Positions 11,501-42,774 of a DNA stretch of 42,901 bases are shown here, piece after piece. A program made the position numbers and the translations under genes. The stretch is taken from the IMG/VR virus record IMGVR_UViG_3300037506_000169, positions 1-42,901 of that record; one strand, given 5' to 3'. This stretch comes from a virus (taxonomy: Duplodnaviria > Caudoviricetes). Position 1 is the first letter of the stretch; every line of letters starts with the position of its first letter. The notes beneath the pieces were generated by a model that did not search any database, was not told the origin of the DNA, and saw only the letters and a list, made by a program, of their open reading frames with translations.

Positions 11501-13708
11501 CATTTCGGTGCGGACAAGATTCGGCTATCGAAGGAGGCGCAGGAGATCGTCGATCTCGCGCACAAACTGATCGTGCATCTTGCCAAGGTCGCAAATCGCG
11601 AGGGCATCGGCTTCCTGAATGCGGAAGGCGGACTGACCGGCGACCCGAACCTGTGGCGCAAGCCACGCCGGCTGACTCCCGAGGGCCGCGAGGCCATGCT
11701 GGACCCGAGGTCTGAGCCAAGGCGTGTAGTTGCCGAGTGGTTACAGAATGCACGTGGCATGGAGCCGCAGGAAGCCGAAGCACAACTCGCGATGTTCGAG
11801 TCGATCTCGCGGCACGACCCAGCCGAGTTCCGCCGGGTCATCGAGGTGCTGCCGAGCCGCTTCGAGCTACCGGACGGCAAGGAGTTCAGACTGCTAGAAG
11901 ACCTGCCGCGCAGCGTGAGCGGCATCTTGGACTCCGGCGCTTACACGCTCGGTGCACGCTCGGTGTTCCGCGACACGCCGATCGAGACCGAAGGTTTGAC
12001 GCCAGAGCAACGACAGGCGATCATCGAAATTCCTGACGGTGCACAGCGTGTGCTCGCCGAGGTGTCGAAGCAGTACGGCCGTGAAGCCATGCTCGCGACC
12101 AAGGACATGCTCAAGGCGCTGCACGGCCTGCCGCTGAGCGATGCGCCTGGCTTCACCAGACCAGGGACGCGGGCACACGACTTCATGCGCGTCGTGATGG
12201 CGTTACTGAACCTGAACAAGGCTGGTAAGCTGTCGCTTGCGTTCATCAACAACTCGCTGTCCGCGCCGCAACACTTGATGCACGTTGGCGTGACCAGGAT
12301 GGCGAAGGCGTGGTCTGACTTCGGTCGCGACTTCACCAACGGCAGGCTCGCCGATGAAGTCATGCGTCTGGAGAGCGATGGCTGGCTCGTGCGGCACACG
12401 GCTGAAAAGCGAGTGAAAGGCGAAACCCGCATTGAGACGTTCGAGAACGCGACTCGCCGGCTCGGTGAGATCCTGACCAAGCCGCTCGACGTAGCTCAAG
12501 GCGTACTCGAGGTTGTGTTGGCCAAAAGCGCGGAAAACGCACTGGCCGAGATGCAGCGCGGTAACGGTGGACAGGTCGACCGCAGCATGTTGTTCTCGAT
12601 GGGGTTCAGGCCAGATCAGATCGAGCGGATGGTCAACGGCAAGGGCACGGCCGAGGAGTACGCGCAGTACCGAACCAACGCGGTCAGCACGTTGGAGGCA
12701 GGCAGGGCACAGACCGCCGCTGACAAGCCTACCTCGGCGCACAGCAAGCTGTTTGACAACCTGGTGTGGTTCCAGAACTTTTTCCGCCACCGGGTCCGCA
12801 TTCTGCGCGGCTACGCCGATGAGATGGCTGCGGCCAAGACCCCCGCCGAGAAAGGCTTGGTGTCGGGCAAGATCGCGATATTTCTCGCCGCCAACTCACT
12901 GGGCGGCTTTGCGACGCAGATTGTAAAGAAGTGGCTCAAGGGCGAAAGCTTCGGTGACTGGCTGCGTGAAACACAGCAGAACCCGCTCGATGCGATGGGT
13001 ACCGTGCTCATCTCGGGTCTGTTCGGTGCAGGCGGCGGCATTTTCTACGAAGCCGGTCGAGGCATCTTCACCGGTCAAAACAAGGAAGAGTTCTTGGGCG
13101 GGTTGGCTGTGTTGCTCGGACCGTTCGGAGCTGCCTACGACGTCATCGCTGGCATCGCCGCGCTGGCAGGTGCAGACATGCCTGGCTACGAAGGCATGAC
13201 ACAACTGCAAAAGGTAGGGAAGTTTGTGCGTACCGAATTGCCGGCCGCGCAATCGTTTCACCGCGGGCTGTTCGGCATCGCAGCGCTCGCGCTATCTGAT
13301 CGGCCTCCAGAGCTACAGTCTGCGTTCGACGCGGTTCATCGGTGGGAGCGGAAGCGTGGAATCCCGAGGATCAGATCGGACCGCAGTGAGCCTGATCGTA
13401 GGGCGTGGCTCGACGCGATGCGTAAAGTAATGGCGAAGGTCGAAGCCGGCGGGCAGTGGGGCGAAGTTGAGTTGATGGACGCACTCGAGGAAGCCGACAT
13501 CTTCGGCGAGGACCAGCACTCGATCGCCAGATCACTGCGTGCGCGCAAGACCTTCAGCGGCGATCTCGACCCGACCTCCGAATCCTACAACGAGGAGAAG
13601 GGCGAAAGCTTGCGCGCCTACCTTGGCCCGGACCACACCGACACGTTGGAAGCGTTCGATGCGACGCTCGAATACCTGGCCGAACGTTGGGAGCGCGCGC
13701 ACAAGTAG
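8531..13708 (+). CDS. Large internal virion / ejection protein (gp16-like position)
   Basis: 1725-aa ORF with Gly-rich hydrophobic segments near both ends and a Pro-rich linker; last large gene of the structural operon. Confidence 0.65.
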   Translation: MSANGAPVLSSDIDPGTPRERLLRMASLRAAHLQRPAHNWPGLAEEEAYAEAIRQIGVNLDIPSLRADFVTYVKTGVRTPAIYDFTKEPDPSDPTNPAYYKNRDEHSLLRDWLVEPLLRIPAAGAQGIVNLGAGVANLFGADLTPPEMESAFYAALRKYGGDTASMRQLRAEEAARLQAYEESRGVGQQIVQGSGTVVGTVVGFTMNMALRVGATVGGWAVRAALNIGKNPTLMQKVGLLAGRGAGGFGTLEALQQPTGTEPLTLEERAHNALIGAVTGPAYELTGQAGKAAFFKLMRSAGRDGEALSTAVAKWAREKGIGRATEDGETKEQFFKRAIDAWVADGTPGLAGTAINTKKAVALAGQALVEALGFSAIDAKFREDLTAAWLDQDQEAWERVVIGFAGNALGMWFLHAGGKLNGIPRLQRQFETDVDGRIVPVSVLTTGARKSTTPTRVLDPIAGFDVQALPNEPQQVTSIRELTRLPDRPTPLDPVELQREAQRSIFLRNHLWRFGWAPATPEQKHPQEPPGITPPGGVRPTEPPREDPAVLRNRMLAEIFRQTHFARWGWAPAEVKGPPTGTEPTAVPSETPPRKPEPIESGQATRFELPDSPYGFEIRAGDAVPNEALREALGSPVRVPVALFADYLHKASLLSALHSKTRLPGQEVSVEGVYGEGDLLRTIRYGEYLERTATVDSRWRPAGTVPERGRDELQPKQHDLVLNLQNAAKRQDLEPADRSLLGGVVETLRTVAAEKDQSVQDTLAILPDLTRQLQDPNPQVAAEAVRTMAESLTTTGPEVLKAREEARKEAEKEAAEAAKRPPNDFYVLIKNQSGETEGVFTTAKTEAEAITEALSKVPGEVVLVEDLSTAPPSRPSEAFGGLVPPEIARAVTQAVVGGSSGARDVFSKLLDAYERSLIRRVEDAGARTAAAMGRASDLKTRELRAENKREGQRRYEELTQRPNRELERKLYDGKGAITTVLEAKLDEKLGQHFGADKIRLSKEAQEIVDLAHKLIVHLAKVANREGIGFLNAEGGLTGDPNLWRKPRRLTPEGREAMLDPRSEPRRVVAEWLQNARGMEPQEAEAQLAMFESISRHDPAEFRRVIEVLPSRFELPDGKEFRLLEDLPRSVSGILDSGAYTLGARSVFRDTPIETEGLTPEQRQAIIEIPDGAQRVLAEVSKQYGREAMLATKDMLKALHGLPLSDAPGFTRPGTRAHDFMRVVMALLNLNKAGKLSLAFINNSLSAPQHLMHVGVTRMAKAWSDFGRDFTNGRLADEVMRLESDGWLVRHTAEKRVKGETRIETFENATRRLGEILTKPLDVAQGVLEVVLAKSAENALAEMQRGNGGQVDRSMLFSMGFRPDQIERMVNGKGTAEEYAQYRTNAVSTLEAGRAQTAADKPTSAHSKLFDNLVWFQNFFRHRVRILRGYADEMAAAKTPAEKGLVSGKIAIFLAANSLGGFATQIVKKWLKGESFGDWLRETQQNPLDAMGTVLISGLFGAGGGIFYEAGRGIFTGQNKEEFLGGLAVLLGPFGAAYDVIAGIAALAGADMPGYEGMTQLQKVGKFVRTELPAAQSFHRGLFGIAALALSDRPPELQSAFDAVHRWERKRGIPRIRSDRSEPDRRAWLDAMRKVMAKVEAGGQWGEVELMDALEEADIFGEDQHSIARSLRARKTFSGDLDPTSESYNEEKGESLRAYLGPDHTDTLEAFDATLEYLAERWERAHK

Positions 13709-13753
13709 CAGGCTACTTGTAGCCTCGCCCGCCTGGCGCTAGGTTCCTGGCCC

Positions 13754-14107
13754 ATGGCCAGAGCAGCCGTGATGGTTGAGTACCATGGCGGATACCGCAA
13801 GCTGGTGGACGTGTGCCGCGACCATGGTATTGATCGACAGACCGTGCAGTCCAGGTTGAACAAGGGTTGGTCGCTGGACGCCGCGTTGACCAAGCGACCG
13901 CGACGTTACCCGCGCGATGTGCGCAGACGGCGACACCATGTAGCGCCGGCGGTTCCGGACCTACCACCACCGGTGGATGCGAACGCCGCAGATCTCCTGC
14001 GCCAGTGCTTGTTCTACATGAACAAGCTCGACTGGTCCGAGCGACTGAACGATTTGATACTTGCTTGCCGCCGGTGGCTGCGGCGCAATAGTCACACATG
14101 CGATTAG
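13754..14107 (+). CDS. Hypothetical small DNA-binding protein
   Basis: 117 aa; GIDRQTVQSRLNKGWSLDAALT resembles the helix-turn-helix-like module seen with phage HNH/homing proteins. Converges on rusA. Confidence 0.5.
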   Translation: MARAAVMVEYHGGYRKLVDVCRDHGIDRQTVQSRLNKGWSLDAALTKRPRRYPRDVRRRRHHVAPAVPDLPPPVDANAADLLRQCLFYMNKLDWSERLNDLILACRRWLRRNSHTCD

Positions 14108-14114
14108 GTAAAGG

Positions 14115-14537
14115 TCAACTGCCCATCACTTCGATCGTGGTGCGCGGGTTGCCGTCCATGTACGCTTTCTGCGCGAGGATCGATGTGATCTGAGCGTCGT
14201 CGCGGTAGACGATTCCGGTCATCGCATCCTCGACGGCGCGCACCAGCTTCGACAGGTCCGGCTTGCTGGTCATGTGCCACACCTTGTCTCTCAGTTCATG
14301 TGCATGCTTGCCGGTGCGGTAGTGTGACTTCGGATGCGGGAACCCGAACCGCACGGTTAGCGTGACGGCCTCGAACAGCATGGTTCGGCCCTGCATGGCA
14401 CGCTGCGCACAGGCCGCGACTTCCTGCCGCCACGGCATAGTGCGCGGGTTGGCTTCGCGCATCGCGCCCCAGCGGGTCTTGATCTTGCTGCCCTGCGGAG
14501 CCGCGATTCCAAGCACTTCGAACGTGATGGTCTGCAT
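14115..14537 (-). CDS. rusA: RusA family Holliday junction resolvase
   Basis: Motifs APQGSK, KPDLSKLVRAVEDAMTGIVYRDDAQI. Confidence 0.9.
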   Translation of the reverse strand: MQTITFEVLGIAAPQGSKIKTRWGAMREANPRTMPWRQEVAACAQRAMQGRTMLFEAVTLTVRFGFPHPKSHYRTGKHAHELRDKVWHMTSKPDLSKLVRAVEDAMTGIVYRDDAQITSILAQKAYMDGNPRTTIEVMGS

Positions 14538-14611
14538 GCGCAGTTGCTTCAGTCCGTCAACGGTTTACCGCGTATCGGGTGCCAGCGCATCTCCTATCGT
14601 GACTGGTTGCA

Positions 14612-15088
14612 TTCGCAGCGAACAAGCGGCTGCGCTCGCTCTGCTGGCGGCGAAATGGTCGTCGTGCCATCGCATCTGCAGGAAGCGATCGCGGTCGCGG
14701 TAACGAAGGGACCGCGCTCCCTCTGCTGGTCGATGAGCACGCGGCCCTGTGCCTCGTGGTCGCGGTAACGAAGGGACCGCGCTCCCTCTGCTGGGCATCC
14801 CGACGCCGTCGACGAACGCGGAGTCGATGCGGTCGCGGTAACGAAGGGACCGCGCTCCCTCTGCTGGCGCCTTCAGCCGCGGCGACGCGCGGGACACGGA
14901 GAAGGGTCGCGGTAACGAAGGGACCGCGCTACCTCTGCTGGCTGGCGCGCTGCGTCGAGCGGACGGTAGAGCGCGCCGTCGCGGTAACGAAGGGACCGCG
15001 CTACCTCTGCTGGACGGCGTGCGATGCCGCAGGAGCGTGACGAGTGCAATGCGTCGCGGTAACGAAGGGACCGCGCTACCTCTGCTGG
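14612..15088 (-). CRISPR. CRISPR array: 6 conserved 36-bp repeats plus 1 divergent terminal repeat, 6 spacers
   Basis: Repeat (- strand) CCAGCAGAGG(G/T)AGCGCGGTCCCTTCGTTACCGCGAC at 14694-14729, 14759-14794, 14832-14867, 14906-14941, 14978-15013 and 15053-15088. Unique spacers of 29, 37, 38, 36 and 39 nt. Divergent copy (26/36) at 14612-14647, separated by 46 nt. A 3' hairpin CGCGGT/ACCGCG followed by AC supports - strand orientation. Confidence 0.95.
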
Positions 15089-15094
15089 AGGCCA

Positions 15095-16916
15095 TCACGG
15101 CGCCCCCGATGCCATCGACGGTTCCGATGCGCTCTGCGAGCGGTCCATCCTGGCCACCTTCTCGCGCCGTCTCTCGCGCACCCTCGCCCAGCGCGAACCA
15201 CCGTTGTCGCCGTCGGTTCGAGCGGTCTCGGCACGTTGCCCACCGCGCCACCGTTTGATTCAGGTTCCGTGCTGCGTTCTCGTCCTGATCCCAATCGTGG
15301 CCGTTCGGACAGACGTTGCGCAGCATCGCGGCCGCGTCGAACGCTTCGACTACGCCGCAAACCGAGCACTCGCGGGTCGTGTTCTCGGCCGGCACCAGCA
15401 CGACTTCGCCGCTCCGCCAGCGGAACGCATTCTCCAGGCACAGGCGGAACTCTGACACGGCCGCACGCACCCGGTTGGTCCGCGCGGTCTCGTTCTCGGC
15501 CTCGCTCTCGAGCGGTGCGTGCCGCGCGACCGTCCGCAGATTGAACTTCTCGAGCACGAGCACGCGGTAGCGCTCGGCGAGCCGAGCGGCCTGCACGCGA
15601 AACCAATCCTTGCGCGCCCGCAGCGCGCCAGTGCGCTGGCTCGTCTCCCAGAGCCACAGGTGCTTGTCCTGCCGGCGCCACGCTTCGAGCGCAGCGAACG
15701 CAGACTCGTCGCCGTCGAACCTGGTGGCACGCCACCGGATTGCCAGCGCAGCGAGCCGGGCCTGCGACTTCCACTGCGGCAGTGTCTCGGTCGCTTCGCG
15801 CAGCCAGACCGGACAGTTCCTGTCACGCTTTCGAAGCCAGCTCCCCAGCTTGTCTCGGGCCGCATCGAAGTTCTGGTCGCGGACCCGCCGCAGCTCGTTT
15901 GGCTTCTGCAACCCGCTGACGATGCGTTCGGGGATGCGCAGCTCCTCGGTCACGCCCTGCTCGTCACAGGTCACACCGACGCGCAGGGTGTCGCCGCGCT
16001 GCCGCCAGCCCACATCGACCGCCACCGCGCCGCTGCCGCCGCCGACCTCGGGTCGACAGCGCACGACGAACTCGGCACACCATTCGGGTCGTGGCCCGAT
16101 GTGCCGCACCCGCACGGTCACGCGCTGAATCCGGCAGTTTGGTGGCAAGGGCCGGTGCAGCAGCAGCGGGAACTTGGCCCACACGGGGGCGCGCCCCTGG
16201 CTGCCGACCCGCAGCCAGAGCTGCAGTCGCTTGCGCAACTGGCTGCGGCGCGAGTTCGGGTCGCGCCGGTCGCGCGTCGGGAACTCGGGGTCGCTGAGGC
16301 AGACCTGCTGCGACGATCCGTCTTCCAGTTCTGCAACCGTCAAGCCACCGACGATCTGCACGCTGACGGCGCCTTCGCCGGTCCAGCGTGCGAACCGCGG
16401 ATCCTGCGGCTGGTCGCGGTCCCACAGCGGCATCTGTCCGGCCTGTGCCGCTGCGTCCTCGGCGAGTTGGTAGGTGCCCCAGTAGACGCCGCACGACGCA
16501 CGGGCCTTGCGCCGGTCGGCGAGGAACTGTTCATGCAGTCGCGCGCGCTCGTCGGCCTGGGCCGCGCGGGTCTCGCGCACCCGCTCGCGCCACGCCTTGA
16601 TTGCGTCGCGCAACGTCTGACGCGCCGCCCTGAGGCGGTCGCGCAGGTCGGCCGCCTCGGATCGCTTCCTGGTCCGCTGTCGCTCGCGTCGGATCTCGAC
16701 GATCAGGCCATCGACGGTCGCGCCGGCTGCCACGACGGCCCGATGCAGGCCCGGGTCGACCGCCGCGTCGAGGTCGCGCAAACGAGCGCGCCGCGCGCAC
16801 TCGATCTCGATCAAGCGGTTGCGGTAGATGTGGGCCGCGCGCATCTGCTCGGCGACGACGGTTGCGCCTTCGATCGGAGCGCGACAGCCGTAGCGTACGA
16901 CCTTCGTGCTGTTCAT
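15095..16916 (-). CDS. cas12m: Type V-U1/Cas12m-like CRISPR effector (TnpB-derived RuvC protein); apparent 1-nt frameshift near 15259 (uncorrected ORF 14565-16916)
   Basis: N-terminal coiled coil, then YWGTY, RWTGEGAVSVQI, LLHRPLP and QWKSQARLAAL, matching recalled Cas12m segments. RuvC-I AVAVDVGWR, RuvC-II VLVLEKF, Zn ribbon CSVC..CPNGH, RuvC-III DQDENAARNL. Adjacent to the array. Confidence 0.8.
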
Positions 16917-18046
16917 GGTTCGCCATGAATCTCACGCATAGAACGGGCGACCTCGGCGTTCGATTCGTCCTGGATTTTCTGCAGCGTGATTTGATCCTTG
17001 TGTTCGATGACCCAGGACGGCACGCGTACGCCGTGCCAGTGATATATGGCGAACCCGTCTGACCACAGATGAGATGGTCCGTCGGCGCAATGCGGGACGT
17101 AACGGCCATCGACGTTTTCGGTGAGCAGTCGGATCGGTTTTTCCGACACCAGACAGAAATCCTGGTGCACATAGCGGAACCCGCTGATTCGGGCCAGTTT
17201 GAGCCAGCAAGCCGCCTTGGCGTAGATGTGGGCGAGTTCTGGCCGGTGCTGCGGCATGACTCGCGACCAATAATCCGTGTATGCGGCCCAGGCTGCCCAC
17301 ATGTTGCCGCCCTGATAGTTGGCGGTCCATCGTGCGGCGCATCTGGCAGCTTGTGCATCGAAGCTGGCGACGTTCGTGGCAGCGAACACGGCATCGTCCG
17401 TGGCGGTGAGCACGGCATCGGTCGTGGCAGCACGCGTGGCCGTGAACGTGGCCGTGAACGTGGTAGCAAGTGTGGCACCGTTCGCGGCACCGTCAGTGGC
17501 AGAATCGACCATGGCAGTGAGCACGGCAGTGTCCATGGCAGAACGCGTAGCAAGGTTCGTGACGGCGAGCGTGGCAGCGTCCGTGGCAGCGGCCGTGGTA
17601 TCAATCGTAGCCGTGAATGTAGCACTTAACGTGGCATCGAGCGTGGCAACGTTCGTGGCAGCAAGCACGGCATCGTCTGTGGCAGAACGCGTAGCGACGT
17701 TCGTGGCACCAACCGTGGCAGAAACCGTAGTCACGTCAATGGTAGTATCGGTAGCAGCGAGCACGGCATCGGCTGTGGCATCTGGAGTGTGGTTGCGTTG
17801 ATACCACCACCACGCAGCTCGCCCACCAGCAAGCGCCATCACCAACGGTGATGGCACGATCACTACAGCCTTCGGTGGCTGCAGGCCCGCGACGTCGTAC
17901 AGTTCATGCACGGCAGCCCTCACGGTGTGGCGCTCGTGGTCGGTCATCCGACCAGTGCTGAGGGCAATCCCGATCCATTCGTCACGCACGGTGGCAAGCA
18001 ACTCGTTCTCAGCGTCAGTGAGGCTGGTGATTCGTTTGTCGGTCAT
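16913..18046 (-). CDS. DUF6745-like phage protein with internal ATxx repeats
   Basis: Likely start MTDKRITSLT (18046). C-terminus LVSEKPIRL...HCADGPSHLWSDGFAIYHWHGVRVP fits this family. The longer 596-aa call overlaps other genes. Confidence 0.75.
   Translation of the reverse strand: MTDKRITSLTDAENELLATVRDEWIGIALSTGRMTDHERHTVRAAVHELYDVAGLQPPKAVVIVPSPLVMALAGGRAAWWWYQRNHTPDATADAVLAATDTTIDVTTVSATVGATNVATRSATDDAVLAATNVATLDATLSATFTATIDTTAAATDAATLAVTNLATRSAMDTAVLTAMVDSATDGAANGATLATTFTATFTATRAATTDAVLTATDDAVFAATNVASFDAQAARCAARWTANYQGGNMWAAWAAYTDYWSRVMPQHRPELAHIYAKAACWLKLARISGFRYVHQDFCLVSEKPIRLLTENVDGRYVPHCADGPSHLWSDGFAIYHWHGVRVPSWVIEHKDQITLQKIQDESNAEVARSMREIHGEP
17360..17782 (-). repeat. Degenerate 12-bp (4-codon) intragenic tandem repeats encoding ATxx
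   Basis: Recurrent GTGGCA on the + strand; protein reads ATDDAVLAATNVATLDAT... Confidence 0.75.
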
Positions 18047-20130: not shown

Positions 20131-20961
20131 TCATGCGCGCCCCTCCATCTTGAGCGCGGTTGGCTCAGGAGCCGGCGCGCCGAACTTGACGCGCGCCAGG
20201 GCGATCGCGGCGCGGTAGGCGAGGCCGTGCGGATTCGTCGCGTGCACTTGCTCGACCTTCACCGCAAACCGATCGAGCGTATCGTGGTAGCATCCGGTGA
20301 CCACCATTACGCCACAATCCTTGTGGCGGAAGATCGTGAGTGGTGCGCCACGCGACCCGATCGGTCCGACGCACAGGATGTCCGCGTCGCTGGCCAACCG
20401 CGCGGATTCAAACACCTGCGCGGAGCCAAACACATGCGCGGAGCCAAACACCCGCGCGTCGCCGAACACTCGCGCAGAGCCGAACACATGCGCGTCGCCG
20501 AACACCTGCGCGTCGCCGAACACCAGCGCGTCGCCGAACACCTGCGCATTGCCAAACACCTGCGCGAAGTCAAGCACCTGCGCTGAGCCGAACACCATCG
20601 CGTAGTTGGACACCTGCGCTTCGCCGAACACCCGCGTTGAGTCATACACCTGCGCTTTGCCGAACACCTGCGCGAAGCCAAACACCATCGCGGAACCAAA
20701 CACCTGCGCTTCGCCGAACACTCGCGCTGAGCCGAACACCTGCGCTTCGCCGAACACCCGCGCGGAGTCGGACACCCATGCATCGTCGTGCTGTGAGAGG
20801 TTCGCTTCCAGCTCGATCCAACCGCCCTTGTCACCGCTCCGTACACCGAACCGTTCGATGGCGCGCAGCGCGCGGATTCGATGCATGGTGCGACCGTGCT
20901 GGGTCGTGAAGTTCTCACCACTGACGAACTCGTACTTGGCGTTCATGCGCGCGTTGTCCAT
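20131..20961 (-). CDS. Hexapeptide-repeat (left-handed beta-helix) phage protein
   Basis: About 21 tandem A(Q/R)VFGx units between the N-terminal HRIRALR..GDKGGWIE and C-terminal GPIGSR..LTIFR..VTGCY domains. Confidence 0.85.
   Translation of the reverse strand: MDNARMNAKYEFVSGENFTTQHGRTMHRIRALRAIERFGVRSGDKGGWIELEANLSQHDDAWVSDSARVFGEAQVFGSARVFGEAQVFGSAMVFGFAQVFGKAQVYDSTRVFGEAQVSNYAMVFGSAQVLDFAQVFGNAQVFGDALVFGDAQVFGDAHVFGSARVFGDARVFGSAHVFGSAQVFESARLASDADILCVGPIGSRGAPLTIFRHKDCGVMVVTGCYHDTLDRFAVKVEQVHATNPHGLAYRAAIALARVKFGAPAPEPTALKMEGRA
20398..20775 (-). repeat. 18-bp tandem repeats encoding the hexapeptide array
   Basis: Recurrent CCGAACACCTGCGC-type units with an 18-bp period. Confidence 0.85.
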
Positions 20962-26899: not shown

Positions 26900-27095
26900 T
26901 GGATTGAGAATCCTCTGAAGGGAGAAAAAGCACCCCGCCCGGGAAAAGACGATGAGCGCGCGGTCCTCCGGGCGGGGCGCAGAGGATGGGCCGCGCGCTG
27001 AAAGTCATCGATCGTACAGTCCTGAGCGATCACCTGTCAACAGTTCCGAGCATCCGCATAAAGGTGTGCGCACGCGGCGCAGTGGTTTCGGTTGT

Positions 27096-27128
27096 GTCAT
27101 CGTCCTTTACCTCCAAGTGAGAGAAAAG
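27096..27128. repeat. 33-bp direct repeat, copy 1 (contains stop, RBS and start)
   Basis: GTCATCGTCCTTTACCTCCAAGTGAGAGAAAAG, identical to 28669-28701. Confidence 0.9.
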
Positions 27129-27313
27129 GGCCACACGTCGACGAATGCGGTACGTCCGCGCAGGTCGTCGGGCAGGATGGCCACGCGACCAGTCGCGGCC
27201 GGCAGCCCGAGTGCTTCGAGAACGAGCCGCGCCCGGGCGCGGCCGCGCAGACTGAAGACAAGCGAATCCCACGCTGCCATCCGGCCGACGTGCGGACCGT
27301 CCGCGACGGTCAA
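27107..27313 (-). CDS. Hypothetical protein or fragment
   Basis: TTG-started 68-aa ORF (AWDSLVFS..LEALGL..PDDLRGR); may be frameshifted from the ATG at 27339. Confidence 0.35.
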   Translation of the reverse strand: MTVADGPHVGRMAAWDSLVFSLRGRARARLVLEALGLPAATGRVAILPDDLRGRTAFVDVWPFSLTWR

Positions 27314-28227: not shown

Positions 28228-28673
28228 CCTCTAGTTAAATCAATCTCCAGTACCCACCGACCAGTATCTGGATCGCGCGTGTATCGTATCAATCGCTGCG
28301 ATTCGCCGACCCAGTGTCGACCTTGCCTGCGGTCCGTATGCAGCACGTAGCTGTACCAGTCAGTACCGTGCTGATGGTCGGTACGGTAATCGCGGAGGCA
28401 CGCTACGTAGACTCGTGTATGCGGGTTGCGCCATTCGCGGCGCGCGGCCGTCAGCGCGCGCTCAAGCGTACGTCGCGCGCCCGGGCCGTGCATCCGGACA
28501 GTGTACCGTGGTAGCGGTACCGCATGCGCAGCGAGTCCGACGGCGGCGCACAGGTGCTCTGCCGCGCCAGGCAGGTCGAGGTGTACTGCGGCACGCGCGA
28601 TCAGCTCGTCGGCCAGGTGATCCTCTGACCCGTACCCGGCCGCATGCCGGATTTCGTAGTATGTCGTCGTCAT
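28224..28673 (-). CDS. Hypothetical protein
   Basis: 149 aa with a strong GGAGG RBS supplied by the 33-bp repeat. Confidence 0.6.
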   Translation of the reverse strand: MTTTYYEIRHAAGYGSEDHLADELIARAAVHLDLPGAAEHLCAAVGLAAHAVPLPRYTVRMHGPGARRTLERALTAARREWRNPHTRVYVACLRDYRTDHQHGTDWYSYVLHTDRRQGRHWVGESQRLIRYTRDPDTGRWVLEIDLTRG

Positions 28674-28701
28674 CGTCCTTTACCTCCAAGTGAGAGAAAA
28701 G
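28669..28701. repeat. 33-bp direct repeat, copy 2
   Basis: Identical to 27096-27128. Confidence 0.9.
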
Positions 28702-28967
28702 CACCCCGCGTCATGGATGGGTACGACCGTCATCGTGATAGCGCCCCGCTCATCGCCGAGGGTCACGATCTTTTGGTTGCTCATGTCTCTTGTCTCTAGC
28801 GCCGGAAGAACCGCCGGCTCGCGGTCGCACGCGCGATCCTGCGCGCGCGCACCTATTATAGCGGCGCGGACTACAGAGAGTGCAGCCAAAAATCGCAGAA
28901 AGTATAGCTGGCGATCACATATCGTTGTACGAGCGAGACTTGTGGATTTGTAACATCGCTCACCTGG

Positions 28968-29320
28968 CCGGACCCGGCCGTGACGCTCTCCCAGGTCCCG
29001 GTCCCGGACCCGGCCGTGACGCTCTCCCAGGTCCCGGTCCCGGACCCGGACGGGCCGTGACGCTACTACCGGTCCCGGACCCGGACGGGACGCTCCCCCA
29101 GGTGCCGGTCCCGGACCCGGACGGGCCGTGACGCTCCAGGTGCCGGACCGGCCGCCGGTCAGGACCCGGACCGTGATGCTCCTACCGGTGCCGGACAGGC
29201 CGGCCCAGGTCACGCTCCCGGACGTCACGCTCCCGGTCCCGGACGCTCCTCCCTGCGGCTATCCCCATCGATCGAGGTGCGCGGCGCAGCCGCCCACGCT
29301 ACCGGGCGTGACGCTCCCAG
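28968..29320. repeat. Non-coding tandem repeat region upstream of terS
   Basis: Two exact 36-bp units (28968-29003, 29004-29039), then degenerate CCGGTCCCGGACCCGG and GT(G/C)ACGCTC units. Confidence 0.85.
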
Positions 29321-29482: not shown

Positions 29483-30028
29483 ATGCGCCGACCACGAGGC
29501 CGACCGCGCACACCAGTCCCGGCCGATGAGTCCGATGCACTCCTCTCCTGGATCGCGGATGGCGGCACCCTCACCGAGTGGTGCCGCCTCCATGGCCGAG
29601 CACGATCCACTATTACTCTTTGGAAACAAAAGAGTTACGATTACCGCGAACGGTTCGCCCGCGCGCGGGAGCAGGCAGCCCACGCACTAGTCGACGAGGC
29701 CCAGGACATTGCCGATGCCGCGACGCCTGAAACCGTTGCGGTAGCTAGGCTTAGGTGCGAAATGCGTTGGAAACGCGCTGCGTGCTTTTGTCCGCGCGCG
29801 TACGGAGCCAAGGCGCTGGCCGGACTGCTACCGGACGCTCCCGAGATGCTGTCGATCAGCGAGGTCGATGCGGCTCGTCAGATCGACCTGATCCTAGCCG
29901 CAGCTGAGCTACGTCGGACGCAGACAGTACATCTGGCGGGTCTGGAGCGCGAGAGACCTCGCATTACGGTAGGTACAGAGGGTACTGGTACGGGTGCAGA
30001 GCAGGGCGCAGACCCGGCCGGAGCGTGA
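29483..30028 (+). CDS. terS: Terminase small subunit (Sf6 gp1-like)
   Basis: WIADGGTLTEWC..STITLW..FARAREQAAHALVDEAQDIAD..ARLR..RW...PRAYG; upstream of terL. Confidence 0.85.
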   Translation: MRRPRGRPRTPVPADESDALLSWIADGGTLTEWCRLHGRARSTITLWKQKSYDYRERFARAREQAAHALVDEAQDIADAATPETVAVARLRCEMRWKRAACFCPRAYGAKALAGLLPDAPEMLSISEVDAARQIDLILAAAELRRTQTVHLAGLERERPRITVGTEGTGTGAEQGADPAGA

Positions 30029-30059
30029 CGTCACCGGGCGCAGACCCGGCCGGAGCGTG
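30004..30059 (+). repeat. 24-bp direct repeat at the terS 3' end
   Basis: GGGCGCAGACCCGGCCGGAGCGTG at 30004-30027 and 30036-30059. Confidence 0.85.
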
Positions 30060-30265
30060 GCGGGAGGGGGGGGGCACCCCAAAACACGCGCGTAGTACGA
30101 ACGAAACCGCCCCCCCGTGTTTTGTGGTGATTTTGGGTTAAGGGTCTAGTCGATTTGGTGATAGGCGTGGAGTGGTGGGGTGGTTGTGGTGGATGCGGGC
30201 AGTTTTTTTAAAAAAAGCTGAGCGTATTGTGGCAGGTTGTAGTGGTAGGTTGTGGTGTACGAGGT

Positions 30266-31810
30266 GTGAGCAGACGAACGATATCGAGTGAGACGCTAGC
30301 CGGGTTGACGGCGGAGGAGCGGGCGCGGCTAGCGAAGTTAATTGAGGCAGCGAATCCGCCGGTATGGGTACCGTTAGCTGGGCCGCAGTTGCAGGCGTAT
30401 GAGAGTGAAGCGGACGTATTGGGTTTTGGCGGGGCAGCTGGAGGTGGGAAAACGGATTTAGCGGTTGGGCTTGCGCTGACGCGGCATCAGCGTGTGGGCA
30501 TATTTCGGCAGAACGGGACGGAGTTGGTGGGGATAGTGGATCGGATTGCGTCGATTTTAGGGACGCGGGAGGGTTATAACGGTCAGGAGCGGTTATGGCG
30601 TTGGCATAGGAAGCGTGACAACGTGGCGGTGCAGATTGAGTTGGGATCGTTTCCGGTACCGGATGACGAGCGGAAGTATCAGGGGCGGCCGCATGATTTG
30701 CTGGTGTTTGACGAAGCGAGCAACATGCGGGAGTCGAGTGTACGGTTTCTGCTGGGGTGGTTGAGGACGACGGATCCGCGGCAGCGTTGTCGAGCGTTGA
30801 TGACATTCAATCCGCCATCGGATGCTGAGGGGCGGTGGGTGGTGCGGTATTTTGCGCCGTGGTTGGACAAGAAGCATCCGCGGCCTGCGGCACCTGGGGA
30901 GTTGCGTTGGTTTGCGACGATAGATGGGCGTGATGAGGAGCGGGAGAACGGGCAGGAGTTTGAGTATCGTGGTGAGAAGATCAGGCCGATTTCGCGGACT
31001 TTCATTCCGAGCAAGATATCGGACAATCCGTATTTATTGGGGACTGGGTATATGGCGACGTTGCAAGCGTTGCCGGAGCCGTTGCGCAGTCAGATGTTGC
31101 ACGGTGATTTCGAGGCCGGGCTGCAGGACAGTGCGTTTCAGGTGATTCCTACTGCGTGGGTGGAGGCGGCGCAGGAGCGGTGGCGGCGGCCGCAGCGGCT
31201 TGGCGAGATGATGAGCATTGGGGTTGACGTAGCGATGGGTGGTAAGGATTTGACGGTGATTGCGCGGCGGCATGCGAGTCCTGAGGGGCCTTGGTTTGAC
31301 GAGCCGATTGTATATTCGGGTCAGCAGAGTGTGGACGGGCCGACTGTTGCGGGGTTCTGCATGGCAGCGAAGCGGGATGATGCGCCGATTCACTTGGACT
31401 TGTTCGGGGTCGGGGCGCAGCCGTACGGGCACTTGATGGCCATGCATCAGCACGTCATCGGGGTGAACGTGGGTGAGCCGGCTCGAGGGTTGACCAGTGA
31501 TGGGCGCGTAGGGTTTCGGAATCTGCGGTCGGAGTTGTGGTGGCGGATGCGCGAGGCGTTGGAGCCGGCCAAGAACACGGGGTTGGCGTTACCGCCGAGT
31601 CGTGAGCTGCTGGCGGATCTGTGTGCGCCATGGTGGAGCATGAAAGGCAATGTGCTGCAGGTAGCGAGTCGGGATGAGATCCGGGAAAAGACTGGGCGGA
31701 GTCCGGACTACGGCACGGCTTACGTGCTGGCCCTGATGGACACGCCCAAGCAGACCGGTTTGCCGATCGGTAGGTCCAATCGGGAATACGATCCATACGC
31801 TGGAATGTGA
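30266..31810 (+). CDS. terL: Terminase large subunit
   Basis: Walker A GGAAGGGKT, Walker B LLVFDEA, TFNP, nuclease IGVDVA..D and SPDYG. Start uncertain (30227 or 30266). Confidence 0.95.
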   Translation: MSRRTISSETLAGLTAEERARLAKLIEAANPPVWVPLAGPQLQAYESEADVLGFGGAAGGGKTDLAVGLALTRHQRVGIFRQNGTELVGIVDRIASILGTREGYNGQERLWRWHRKRDNVAVQIELGSFPVPDDERKYQGRPHDLLVFDEASNMRESSVRFLLGWLRTTDPRQRCRALMTFNPPSDAEGRWVVRYFAPWLDKKHPRPAAPGELRWFATIDGRDEERENGQEFEYRGEKIRPISRTFIPSKISDNPYLLGTGYMATLQALPEPLRSQMLHGDFEAGLQDSAFQVIPTAWVEAAQERWRRPQRLGEMMSIGVDVAMGGKDLTVIARRHASPEGPWFDEPIVYSGQQSVDGPTVAGFCMAAKRDDAPIHLDLFGVGAQPYGHLMAMHQHVIGVNVGEPARGLTSDGRVGFRNLRSELWWRMREALEPAKNTGLALPPSRELLADLCAPWWSMKGNVLQVASRDEIREKTGRSPDYGTAYVLALMDTPKQTGLPIGRSNREYDPYAGM

Positions 31811-31832
31811 GCCTAGGGGTAGGACCTGTGGC

Positions 31833-32294
31833 ATGCCCGAGGTGCGTGCGCAGATCCGGATTCTGCTGGACCAGGTCGATACTGTCAGGTCCAGGGCAGA
31901 CGAGTTGATGCGGCAGCATTGGGAGGAGATCGCGCTGAACAAGAAACTGATGCGGTTGGATCCGGACTGGCATCGTTACTACATGCTCGAGGAACAGGAA
32001 CTGCTCATGACGCATACGGTGTGGGCGAACGAGCAGTTGGTCGGCTACAGCTTGACCTTCGTGATGCCGCACCTGCACTACAAGCAGTTAATGTGTGCAC
32101 AGAACGACGTGATCTTCATCGCCAAGCCCTACCGTGGTATCGGTAAGGGTTTGATCGCGCGGGTCGAGCAGGATGCGCGTAACAAAGGCGCTCGGCTGAT
32201 GCTGTGGCACAGCAAGCCCGACACCGCCCTGAACGGACTCATGCCAAGGATGGGCTACCGTGTCCAGGACATCGTGCACAGCCGGGAGTTGTAA
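31833..32294 (+). CDS. GNAT-like acetyltransferase-fold protein
   Basis: DVIFIAKPYRGIGKGLIARVEQDARNKGA (motif A-like). Confidence 0.75.
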   Translation: MPEVRAQIRILLDQVDTVRSRADELMRQHWEEIALNKKLMRLDPDWHRYYMLEEQELLMTHTVWANEQLVGYSLTFVMPHLHYKQLMCAQNDVIFIAKPYRGIGKGLIARVEQDARNKGARLMLWHSKPDTALNGLMPRMGYRVQDIVHSREL

Positions 32295-42183: not shown

Positions 42184-42774
42184 ATGATTCTCGACAGCAT
42201 AGGAATCCTGACCGCGTCGGTGCCGCCGCAAGGATTTCCGTTCGCGGTTTCTGCGAATGGTGCGGTGGATCTTTGGCCGCAGGGCAGTGAACACATCAGT
42301 GGTGGCGTTCTTGCACCGTTCAAGGGCAAGCCGCCGTTGATTGGCGATGGCGAGCAACTGTATGTTCAATTCCGCATTGAGTCAGCGTTCATCGTCGGTG
42401 GCGGTAGTCCGATCGCTCAGTTCATTGTCGCCCAATCGCTCACTGCTGACGGAACTGCTGGCAACGATACGGTCATCATCGGAACGGCAACCGGACCGTT
42501 GCAGCCCAACCTCATGCTTGGTTTCTCTGGGCTTACTGGCGCTACCATTGGTCAGATCGTCGAGGTGCCGATTGGGGCTCCGCACATTCTGAACAACGTG
42601 ACGGCAAACCCGGACTTTAGTCTGTTCCGGTACCTTCTGATCGCGATCTATGTGCCGAATGAGCAGTCTGGTACCAATTGGTTTTCGAGTGGCTCGATCT
42701 CGGCCAAGATTCTGCTCGGTTCGCAACGTAGCGCGCGCACCCGAATCTACCCGGCAGCCTTCAACATCAAGTAG
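42184..42774 (+). CDS. Second cement/decoration-like protein
   Basis: AGGAG RBS; MILDS..IGDGEQLYV..RYL..GSISAKI..YP pattern. Confidence 0.6.
   Translation: MILDSIGILTASVPPQGFPFAVSANGAVDLWPQGSEHISGGVLAPFKGKPPLIGDGEQLYVQFRIESAFIVGGGSPIAQFIVAQSLTADGTAGNDTVIIGTATGPLQPNLMLGFSGLTGATIGQIVEVPIGAPHILNNVTANPDFSLFRYLLIAIYVPNEQSGTNWFSSGSISAKILLGSQRSARTRIYPAAFNIK

Follow-up and report, generated by a model that had tools for sequence, protein, structure and literature searches.

Eight Cas12m proteins, four of them with a D-E-D triad, are reported to use tracrRNA-free guides processed by the effector, to recognize T- or C-rich PAMs and to lack dsDNA cleavage (Bigelyte et al., PMC11013384). A TTN PAM and a 17-bp duplex are described for Cas12m2 (Omura et al., PMC10442227), and a gradual inactivation of RuvC within type V-M has been noted (PMC10691335). 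PmCas12m is reported to lose activity with mismatches up to 12 nt from the PAM and to tolerate a short C-terminal deletion (10.64898/2026.03.26.714355). The occurrence of type V-M systems on plasmids and in some prophages is mentioned in a review (PMC11656645), and a Cas12m encoded by a phage, MvCas12m of myxophage MV-1, has already been presented in a preprint (bioRxiv 10.64898/2026.09.14.751636). A phage-borne Cas12m system is a known kind of element, and its relatives are common in viral contigs.

The locus described here is located in a viral record of 42,901 bp (hereafter the window, the whole stretch of DNA that was analyzed), which represents a whole virus genome, linear and 100% complete by CheckV, in line with the first-pass annotation that had called it almost complete. 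The rightward genes encode a terminase, a head-tail adaptor, a protease, a GP7-type major capsid protein, and tail and internal virion proteins; the leftward genes include an exonuclease, a weak match to a replication initiator, a methyltransferase, a DUF6745 gene and rusA. The cassette, consisting of cas12m and its array, occupies the far end of the leftward block, and this position, taken alone, suggests that it is expressed early. As annotated, it is flanked upstream by the DUF6745 gene (16913-18046, - strand), which meets cas12m in an ATGA overlap, and downstream by rusA (14115-14537, - strand), encoding a Holliday-junction resolvase and lying 74 nt past the last repeat. Genes for adaptation (cas1, cas2, cas4) had been described as missing, and none of the three was found anywhere in the 42,901-bp record, while positive controls were detected. 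A scan of the window for sigma-70 promoters returned 3 sites against 2.0 expected, none of them near the cassette. Two repetitive stretches nearby are protein-coding: degenerate 12-nt repeats (17355-17780) within the DUF6745 gene encode an Ala/Thr-rich stretch, and an 18-nt tandem array (20347-20830) in a 276-aa gene encodes a beta-solenoid (PF18836).

Judged by homology, the effector is a Cas12m (type V-M) and not an IS200/IS605 TnpB, and its descent is not in doubt. Codons 1-552 (15261-16916, - strand) cover the REC/WED region, the RuvC triad D301/E456/D545 (D-E-D), the crRNA-binding residues H254/R255 and the zinc site C517/C520/C536/H540. In a PDB sequence search, residues 7-552 matched 23VW (E 5e-70), and five of the six matching sequences were Cas12m (23VW, 8HIO/8HHL, 8PM4, 23VU), the sixth being a kinesin at E 0.06. 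A TnpB passenger beside an unrelated array would account for the weak TnpB and "transposase" profile matches, which fall in the C-terminal part of the protein, and the RuvC and zinc-ribbon C-terminal half is indeed common to this effector and TnpB. However, the effector reached 29 bits with the NCBIfam guided_TnpB model, below the family cut-off of 100, its homology to Cas12m structures extends over the full length, and it carries the coiled-coil N-terminal extension typical of Cas12m. Unlike an IS200/IS605 TnpB, it comes with a CRISPR array and not with a single guide RNA, its family is array-linked in most loci, and no Y1 transposase (TnpA) was matched in the record, where the control was detected in 6 of 14 genomes. 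In a FastTree phylogeny of 121 sequences (midpoint-rooted, with no TnpB outgroup and with fragments shorter than 480 aa excluded), the effector fell within a 26-member clade composed only of D-E-D proteins (support 0.977). The proposed Cas12m identity, for which profile and phylogenetic comparisons had been suggested as checks, is right.

A chimeric contig was also considered. One contig of a metagenome run spans the effector and its upstream genes, and another extends from rusA to repeat 7 (12443-14647), so that each outer junction of the cassette is bridged by a single contig; this independent support covers the outer junctions and not the inner order of the array. Among the matches listed (8 of 69), contig pieces cover spacers 1, 2, 3 and 5, and none covers spacers 4 or 6. 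Given the homology to Cas12m, the lack of TnpA and the bridged junctions, a TnpB passenger or a chimeric contig has a negligible probability in our view.

The effector shares with the type V-M Cas12m proteins available for comparison (23VW, MmCas12m2 8HHL/8HIO, GoCas12m 8PM4, UnCas12m4a 23VU and PmCas12m) full-length sequence homology, a 36-nt pseudoknot repeat with a G.A cap and a GAC end, a zinc finger inside RuvC, and the lack of adaptation genes. Unlike these characterized proteins, it has a D-E-D triad instead of H-D-D or N-D-D, its clade possesses a longer basic C-terminal tail, and it is encoded on a small phage by a frameshifted gene. The equivalents of D301/E456/D545 are kept in all 26 clade members and in 87 of 120 relatives, and a possible nuclease activity is suggested by the authors of the MV-1 preprint (10.64898/2026.09.14.751636); both points would fit an active nuclease that cuts rival DNA and does not only bind it. 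This contrasts with the four D-E-D Cas12m proteins reported without cleavage (PMC11013384) and with Cas12m2, in which restoring D-E-D was reported to give no return of cutting (PMC10442227), and we regard an active nuclease as improbable.

The initial description of a protein of about 600 aa with RuvC and zinc-ribbon features, directly followed by a co-oriented array, was correct for the array, its strand and the RuvC and zinc features, but not for the length. The ORF starting at 16916 is 783 aa long, its first in-frame stop being reached only at 14567, past the array, and a protein of about 606 aa is obtained only when one base at about 15260 is skipped. The lesion is an extra base at 15260 (- strand), one of a pair of A; it lies seven codons beyond the last RuvC residue and changes the frame after L552. 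A conserved basic C-terminal tail of 54 aa and its TGA stop are found out of frame (15095-15259, - strand), the stop (15097-15095) being located 6 nt ahead of repeat 1, and the frame read after the shift (14565-15260, - strand) continues for 231 unrelated codons across the whole array to a TAG. The tail was recognized from homologs: out of 110, 56 had the end-of-RuvC motif and 45 of those had tails of at least 25 aa, and these tails aligned best to the one-base-shifted frame in 38 of 45 cases, the other frames accounting for 4 and 3. The shifted-frame tail is 51% identical to that of P0007 (E 5e-11). Among 113 relatives whose loci reach RuvC-III and a stop, reading past the end of RuvC-III yields at most 72 aa, against 231 aa here. 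Programmed frameshifting was considered and rejected, there being no homopolymer run or recognizable slippery signal at about 15260. These comparisons indicate that this copy of Cas12m is likely impaired by the one-base frameshift, which the first-pass annotation had overlooked; its description as a self-contained RNA-guided effector is doubtful for this copy.

Two other readings of the extra base were weighed. It could have arisen as an error in sequencing or assembly, or be a minority allele, the circulating phage carrying an ordinary Cas12m of about 606 aa; the lesion is single, the tail is still 51% identical to that of a relative, and only one run contains the sequence, possibly the source itself. 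Against an error, a second short-read assembly has the same letters, without a gap or break at the site: a 5091-nt contig (15060-20150, depth 9) from this freshwater metagenome run shows no letter or gap differing from the record, with the reservation that this run is possibly the source sample and that rare alleles are lost from contigs. Moreover, the site is outside any long homopolymer, and the other genes tested are free of frameshifts: none was observed when about 17 kb of structural genes were set against relatives, the two listed frame changes being antisense and crossing a gene border. An artefact or minority allele is accordingly rated as distinctly improbable.

The second reading is that the 783-aa protein still functions, with everything up to RuvC-III intact, the tail dispensable and the cassette active as it stands. 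The triad, the zinc ligands and H254/R255 are all encoded upstream of the shift, and no second lesion was found in cas12m. Loss of the tail need not kill the protein, because 23 of the 113 relatives have tails of no more than 20 aa, stopping within that distance of the shift point, and because PmCas12m tolerates a short C-terminal deletion, being reported as active without residues 594-601 (10.64898/2026.03.26.714355). In contrast, a tail of 37-71 aa bearing a conserved basic motif is retained by each of the 20 relatives that are at least 44% identical, readthrough of the array is seen in no relative, and translation across the array would be expected to compete with guide processing. We therefore see a functional 783-aa form as a possibility, but an unlikely one. 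For the preferred reading, an impaired gene, general considerations would predict that ribosomes translate through the array after the shift and that cutting of the repeats leaves the effector message without a stop codon. Little full protein would then be expected, with a junk tail of 231 aa. Since it is probably damaged, this copy is a poor candidate for tool development, and a frame-restored version or an intact relative (P0002-P0008, 54-59% identical) would be a better choice.

The array comprises seven 36-nt repeats on the - strand, the same strand as the effector, as had been noted. Six of the repeats (15088-14694) are identical except at position 11, and spacers 1-6 measure 39, 36, 38, 37, 29 and 46 nt. 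Repeats 1-3, together with spacers 1-2 (14906-15088, - strand), carry a T at position 11 and have lost the 11:20 pair, which is kept in 47 of 49 repeats of related loci; repeats 4-6, with spacers 4 and 5 (14694-14867, - strand), carry a G and have all nine pairs intact. In the same 49 related repeats, pairing of positions 9-11 with 20-22 is found in 45-47 and of 14-18 with 30-34 in 47-49, and G.A at 13/35 in 44. When 29 repeats were aligned to examine covariation (3 of the window's and 26 chosen from related loci), 96.6% of alignment cells were paired for 9-11/20-22 and 14-19/29-34, compared to 35-48% for slid controls, and two-sided changes occurred in eight of the nine base pairs. By covariation, the repeat is a stem plus pseudoknot of two helices, a scaffold described for Cas12m2 (PMC10442227) and PmCas12m (10.64898/2026.03.26.714355). 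Single-hairpin folds of the repeat are at odds with the covariation; the GAC end of the 3' hairpin originally proposed stands, but the single hairpin gives way to the two-helix pseudoknot.

Repeat 7 (14612-14647, - strand) differs from repeats 4-6 at 10 positions and keeps all nine pairs, those at 10:21, 17:31 and 19:29 by compensatory changes. It is a structure-preserving variant and not a decayed repeat, and 30 of its 36 positions are identical to one repeat of the related phage-like contig L201. No anti-repeat that might serve as a tracrRNA candidate was detected within 12 mismatches anywhere in the window, nor was there an Rfam match, and no exact match to the repeat was found in 185,579 species genomes or in metagenome contigs. 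The start of one run contig coincides with that of repeat 7 (14647), and in the population two different spacers may lead into this repeat.

Among the spacers, spacer 4 (14795-14831, - strand) was the informative one. It is identical in 27 of 37 nt to the phage's own positions 42373-42409, a stretch that is preceded by TTC (42370-42409, + strand) and that lies in frame in a 196-aa gene (42184-42774) downstream of the capsid genes. An equally good match to the genome was obtained with 6 of 2000 codon shuffles, and with none of the 2000 behind TTN; none of 189 real foreign spacers of related systems matched as well over 34 nt, though 31 of the 189 did when only the first 20 nt were compared and no PAM was required. 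Since six spacers were examined, the corrected chance of the match does not exceed a few per cent. Six of the ten mismatches fall at third codon positions, and three are at guide positions 6, 9 and 12. At the protein-profile level the match was not significant (150 of 246 foreign spacers scored as high). The closest relative of the gene (81% identical) has E and G in place of the D and V of the spacer, and differs from the spacer at the same residues as the phage's gene, bar one. No self-like spacer with TTN exceeded the null among 8 spacers of L201 and 7 of the related phage contig L202. Spacer 4 was likely taken from a sibling phage. Its target would be the sibling's copy of this virion-module gene. 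The phage itself would be spared: judging by PmCas12m, the mismatches at guide positions 6, 9 and 12 should let it escape.

Wider searches with the array gave no assignable targets: blastn returned chance-level matches only, both in 50,697 phage records (best E 0.04) and in 72,556 plasmid records (best E 0.1), exact or codon-degenerate patterns of spacers 1, 3, 4 and 6 matched no stretch in IMG/VR, and spacer 4 with 3 mismatches allowed was found in none of 35 related phage records. The likeness between spacer 6 and a tail-protein motif (25 of 46 nt) was put down to chance. Use against rival elements or against host genes had both been suggested, and for the former there is now one suggestive spacer, while nothing supports the latter. 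An array aimed at host genes, for instance defence genes repressed during infection, would be compatible with the reported repression of transcription by binding-only effectors (PMC11013384; 10.64898/2026.03.26.714355) and with the five of six spacers that have no assigned target; the sole informative spacer nevertheless points to a phage gene, and host targeting appears rather improbable to us. If the match is true, spacer 4 with its TTC PAM is the first target clue for a phage Cas12m. Viral CRISPR mini-arrays with a role in inter-virus competition (PMC11656645) are likewise short virus-encoded arrays in which a spacer resembles a gene of a related virus. As described in that review, mini-arrays borrow the host repeat and Cas proteins, whereas the present cassette has its own effector and a repeat lacking an exact counterpart in the species genomes searched.

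This phage carries a V-M cassette, made up of the effector and seven-repeat array without adaptation genes; we consider it fairly probable that its intact form bound and silenced genes of competing phages by means of self-processed guides, and that the frameshift impairs this gene. By analogy with characterized Cas12m, the guides would be cut by the effector from the same leftward transcript, a T-rich PAM would be recognized, and DNA would be bound without cleavage. Given the eight Cas12m proteins without dsDNA cleavage, the TTN PAM and the PmCas12m data, an intact cassette is expected to silence DNA by binding.

Relatives of the effector were identified in 39 IMG/VR loci, 25 of them with an array detected. 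The effector is missing from all 25 capsid relatives of the phage, 13 of which are at least 90% complete, with the phage's own record serving as the positive control. A further gene in common with the window was seen in only 2 of 125 effector loci, and close effectors occur in unrelated phage contigs, including phages of about 41-44 kb. The cassette appears to be mobile, because it is missing from the capsid relatives and its close effectors are found in unrelated phages. L201 (43.8 kb) carries a terminase on its contig, with RusA immediately after the array, a lambda-like terminase is encoded on L202 (40.7 kb), and L122 is also phage-like. The L202 protein (610 aa, 69.0 kDa, D305/E463/D555), with its array of eight spacers, has the values given for MvCas12m in the preprint, and the present effector is 48% identical to it over 566 columns. 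MvCas12m and the present cassette belong to the same clade and share the D-E-D triad and an array directly behind the gene; both phages are of about 41-43 kb, lack cas1, cas2 and cas4 and have no confident protospacer (10.64898/2026.09.14.751636, for MV-1). MV-1 has an intact gene and nine identical repeats, in contrast to the frameshift, three repeat variants and one self-resembling spacer observed here, and MV-1 has a lambda-like terminase and tail, whereas this phage has a GP7-type capsid, a head-tail adaptor and internal virion proteins. Elsewhere, a homolog with 33% identity on L001 (3956-7372; KX853510, Virus Rctr197k) is annotated only as "similar to transposase", beside an annotated CRISPR.

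Repeat variants are not confined to this array. At least one compensatory repeat variant was detected in about 22 of 56 related arrays, an approximate count, since detection is biased towards paired repeats and, where arrays are most variable, may link spurious ones. The L201 array has six variants among ten detected repeats, and an extra last repeat that begins like repeats 4-6 of the window, after the same five bases. Block-wise switching of repeats suggests exchange between cassettes, although stepwise drift under selection is an alternative that would also produce variants. Recombination between cassettes, if true, would account for repeats switching in blocks with compensatory pairs and for the occurrence of the same variants in unrelated phages. 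More broadly, the D-E-D Cas12m clade could be a mobile cassette of unrelated phages of about 40-60 kb, aimed at the virion genes of sibling phages, with arrays renewed without Cas1-Cas2 by recombining repeat-spacer blocks between cassettes; we offer this as a tentative and, at present, doubtful proposal. Structure-preserving repeat mosaics make spacer gain without cas1/cas2 testable by comparing cassettes between phages. No publication on compensatory repeat variants in Cas12m arrays was found by title or the start of the abstract, which is not proof of absence.

Several related loci showed further features. L201 (2843-3586) is a phage-like contig binned in a bacterial MAG, with about 11 repeats and at least six structure-preserving variants, two of which resemble repeat 7 and repeats 4-6 of the window. 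Block-wise or scattered repeat variants with pairing kept were also seen in L124 (7883-8855), L168 (3706-4228) and L122 (7846-8244). In the Cas12m array of L022 (7913-8167) all three spacers are identical, one spacer is duplicated in L202, and one Cas12m-array locus is present three times (L182, L183 and L185) on the same contig of 274 kb.

Outside the cassette, a 44-nt element occurs twice in the window (27096-27139 and 28669-28712, 91% identical) with a terminator-like site beside each copy, the pair being near a sigma-70-like promoter at 27040. Strong GC skew (0.38, 0.28) was observed in the region of the terminase large subunit (30001-32000). Finally, clustered 36-nt GC-rich direct repeats (28962-29230) are located where the leftward genes give way to the rightward ones, and this cluster is a possible origin or packaging region.
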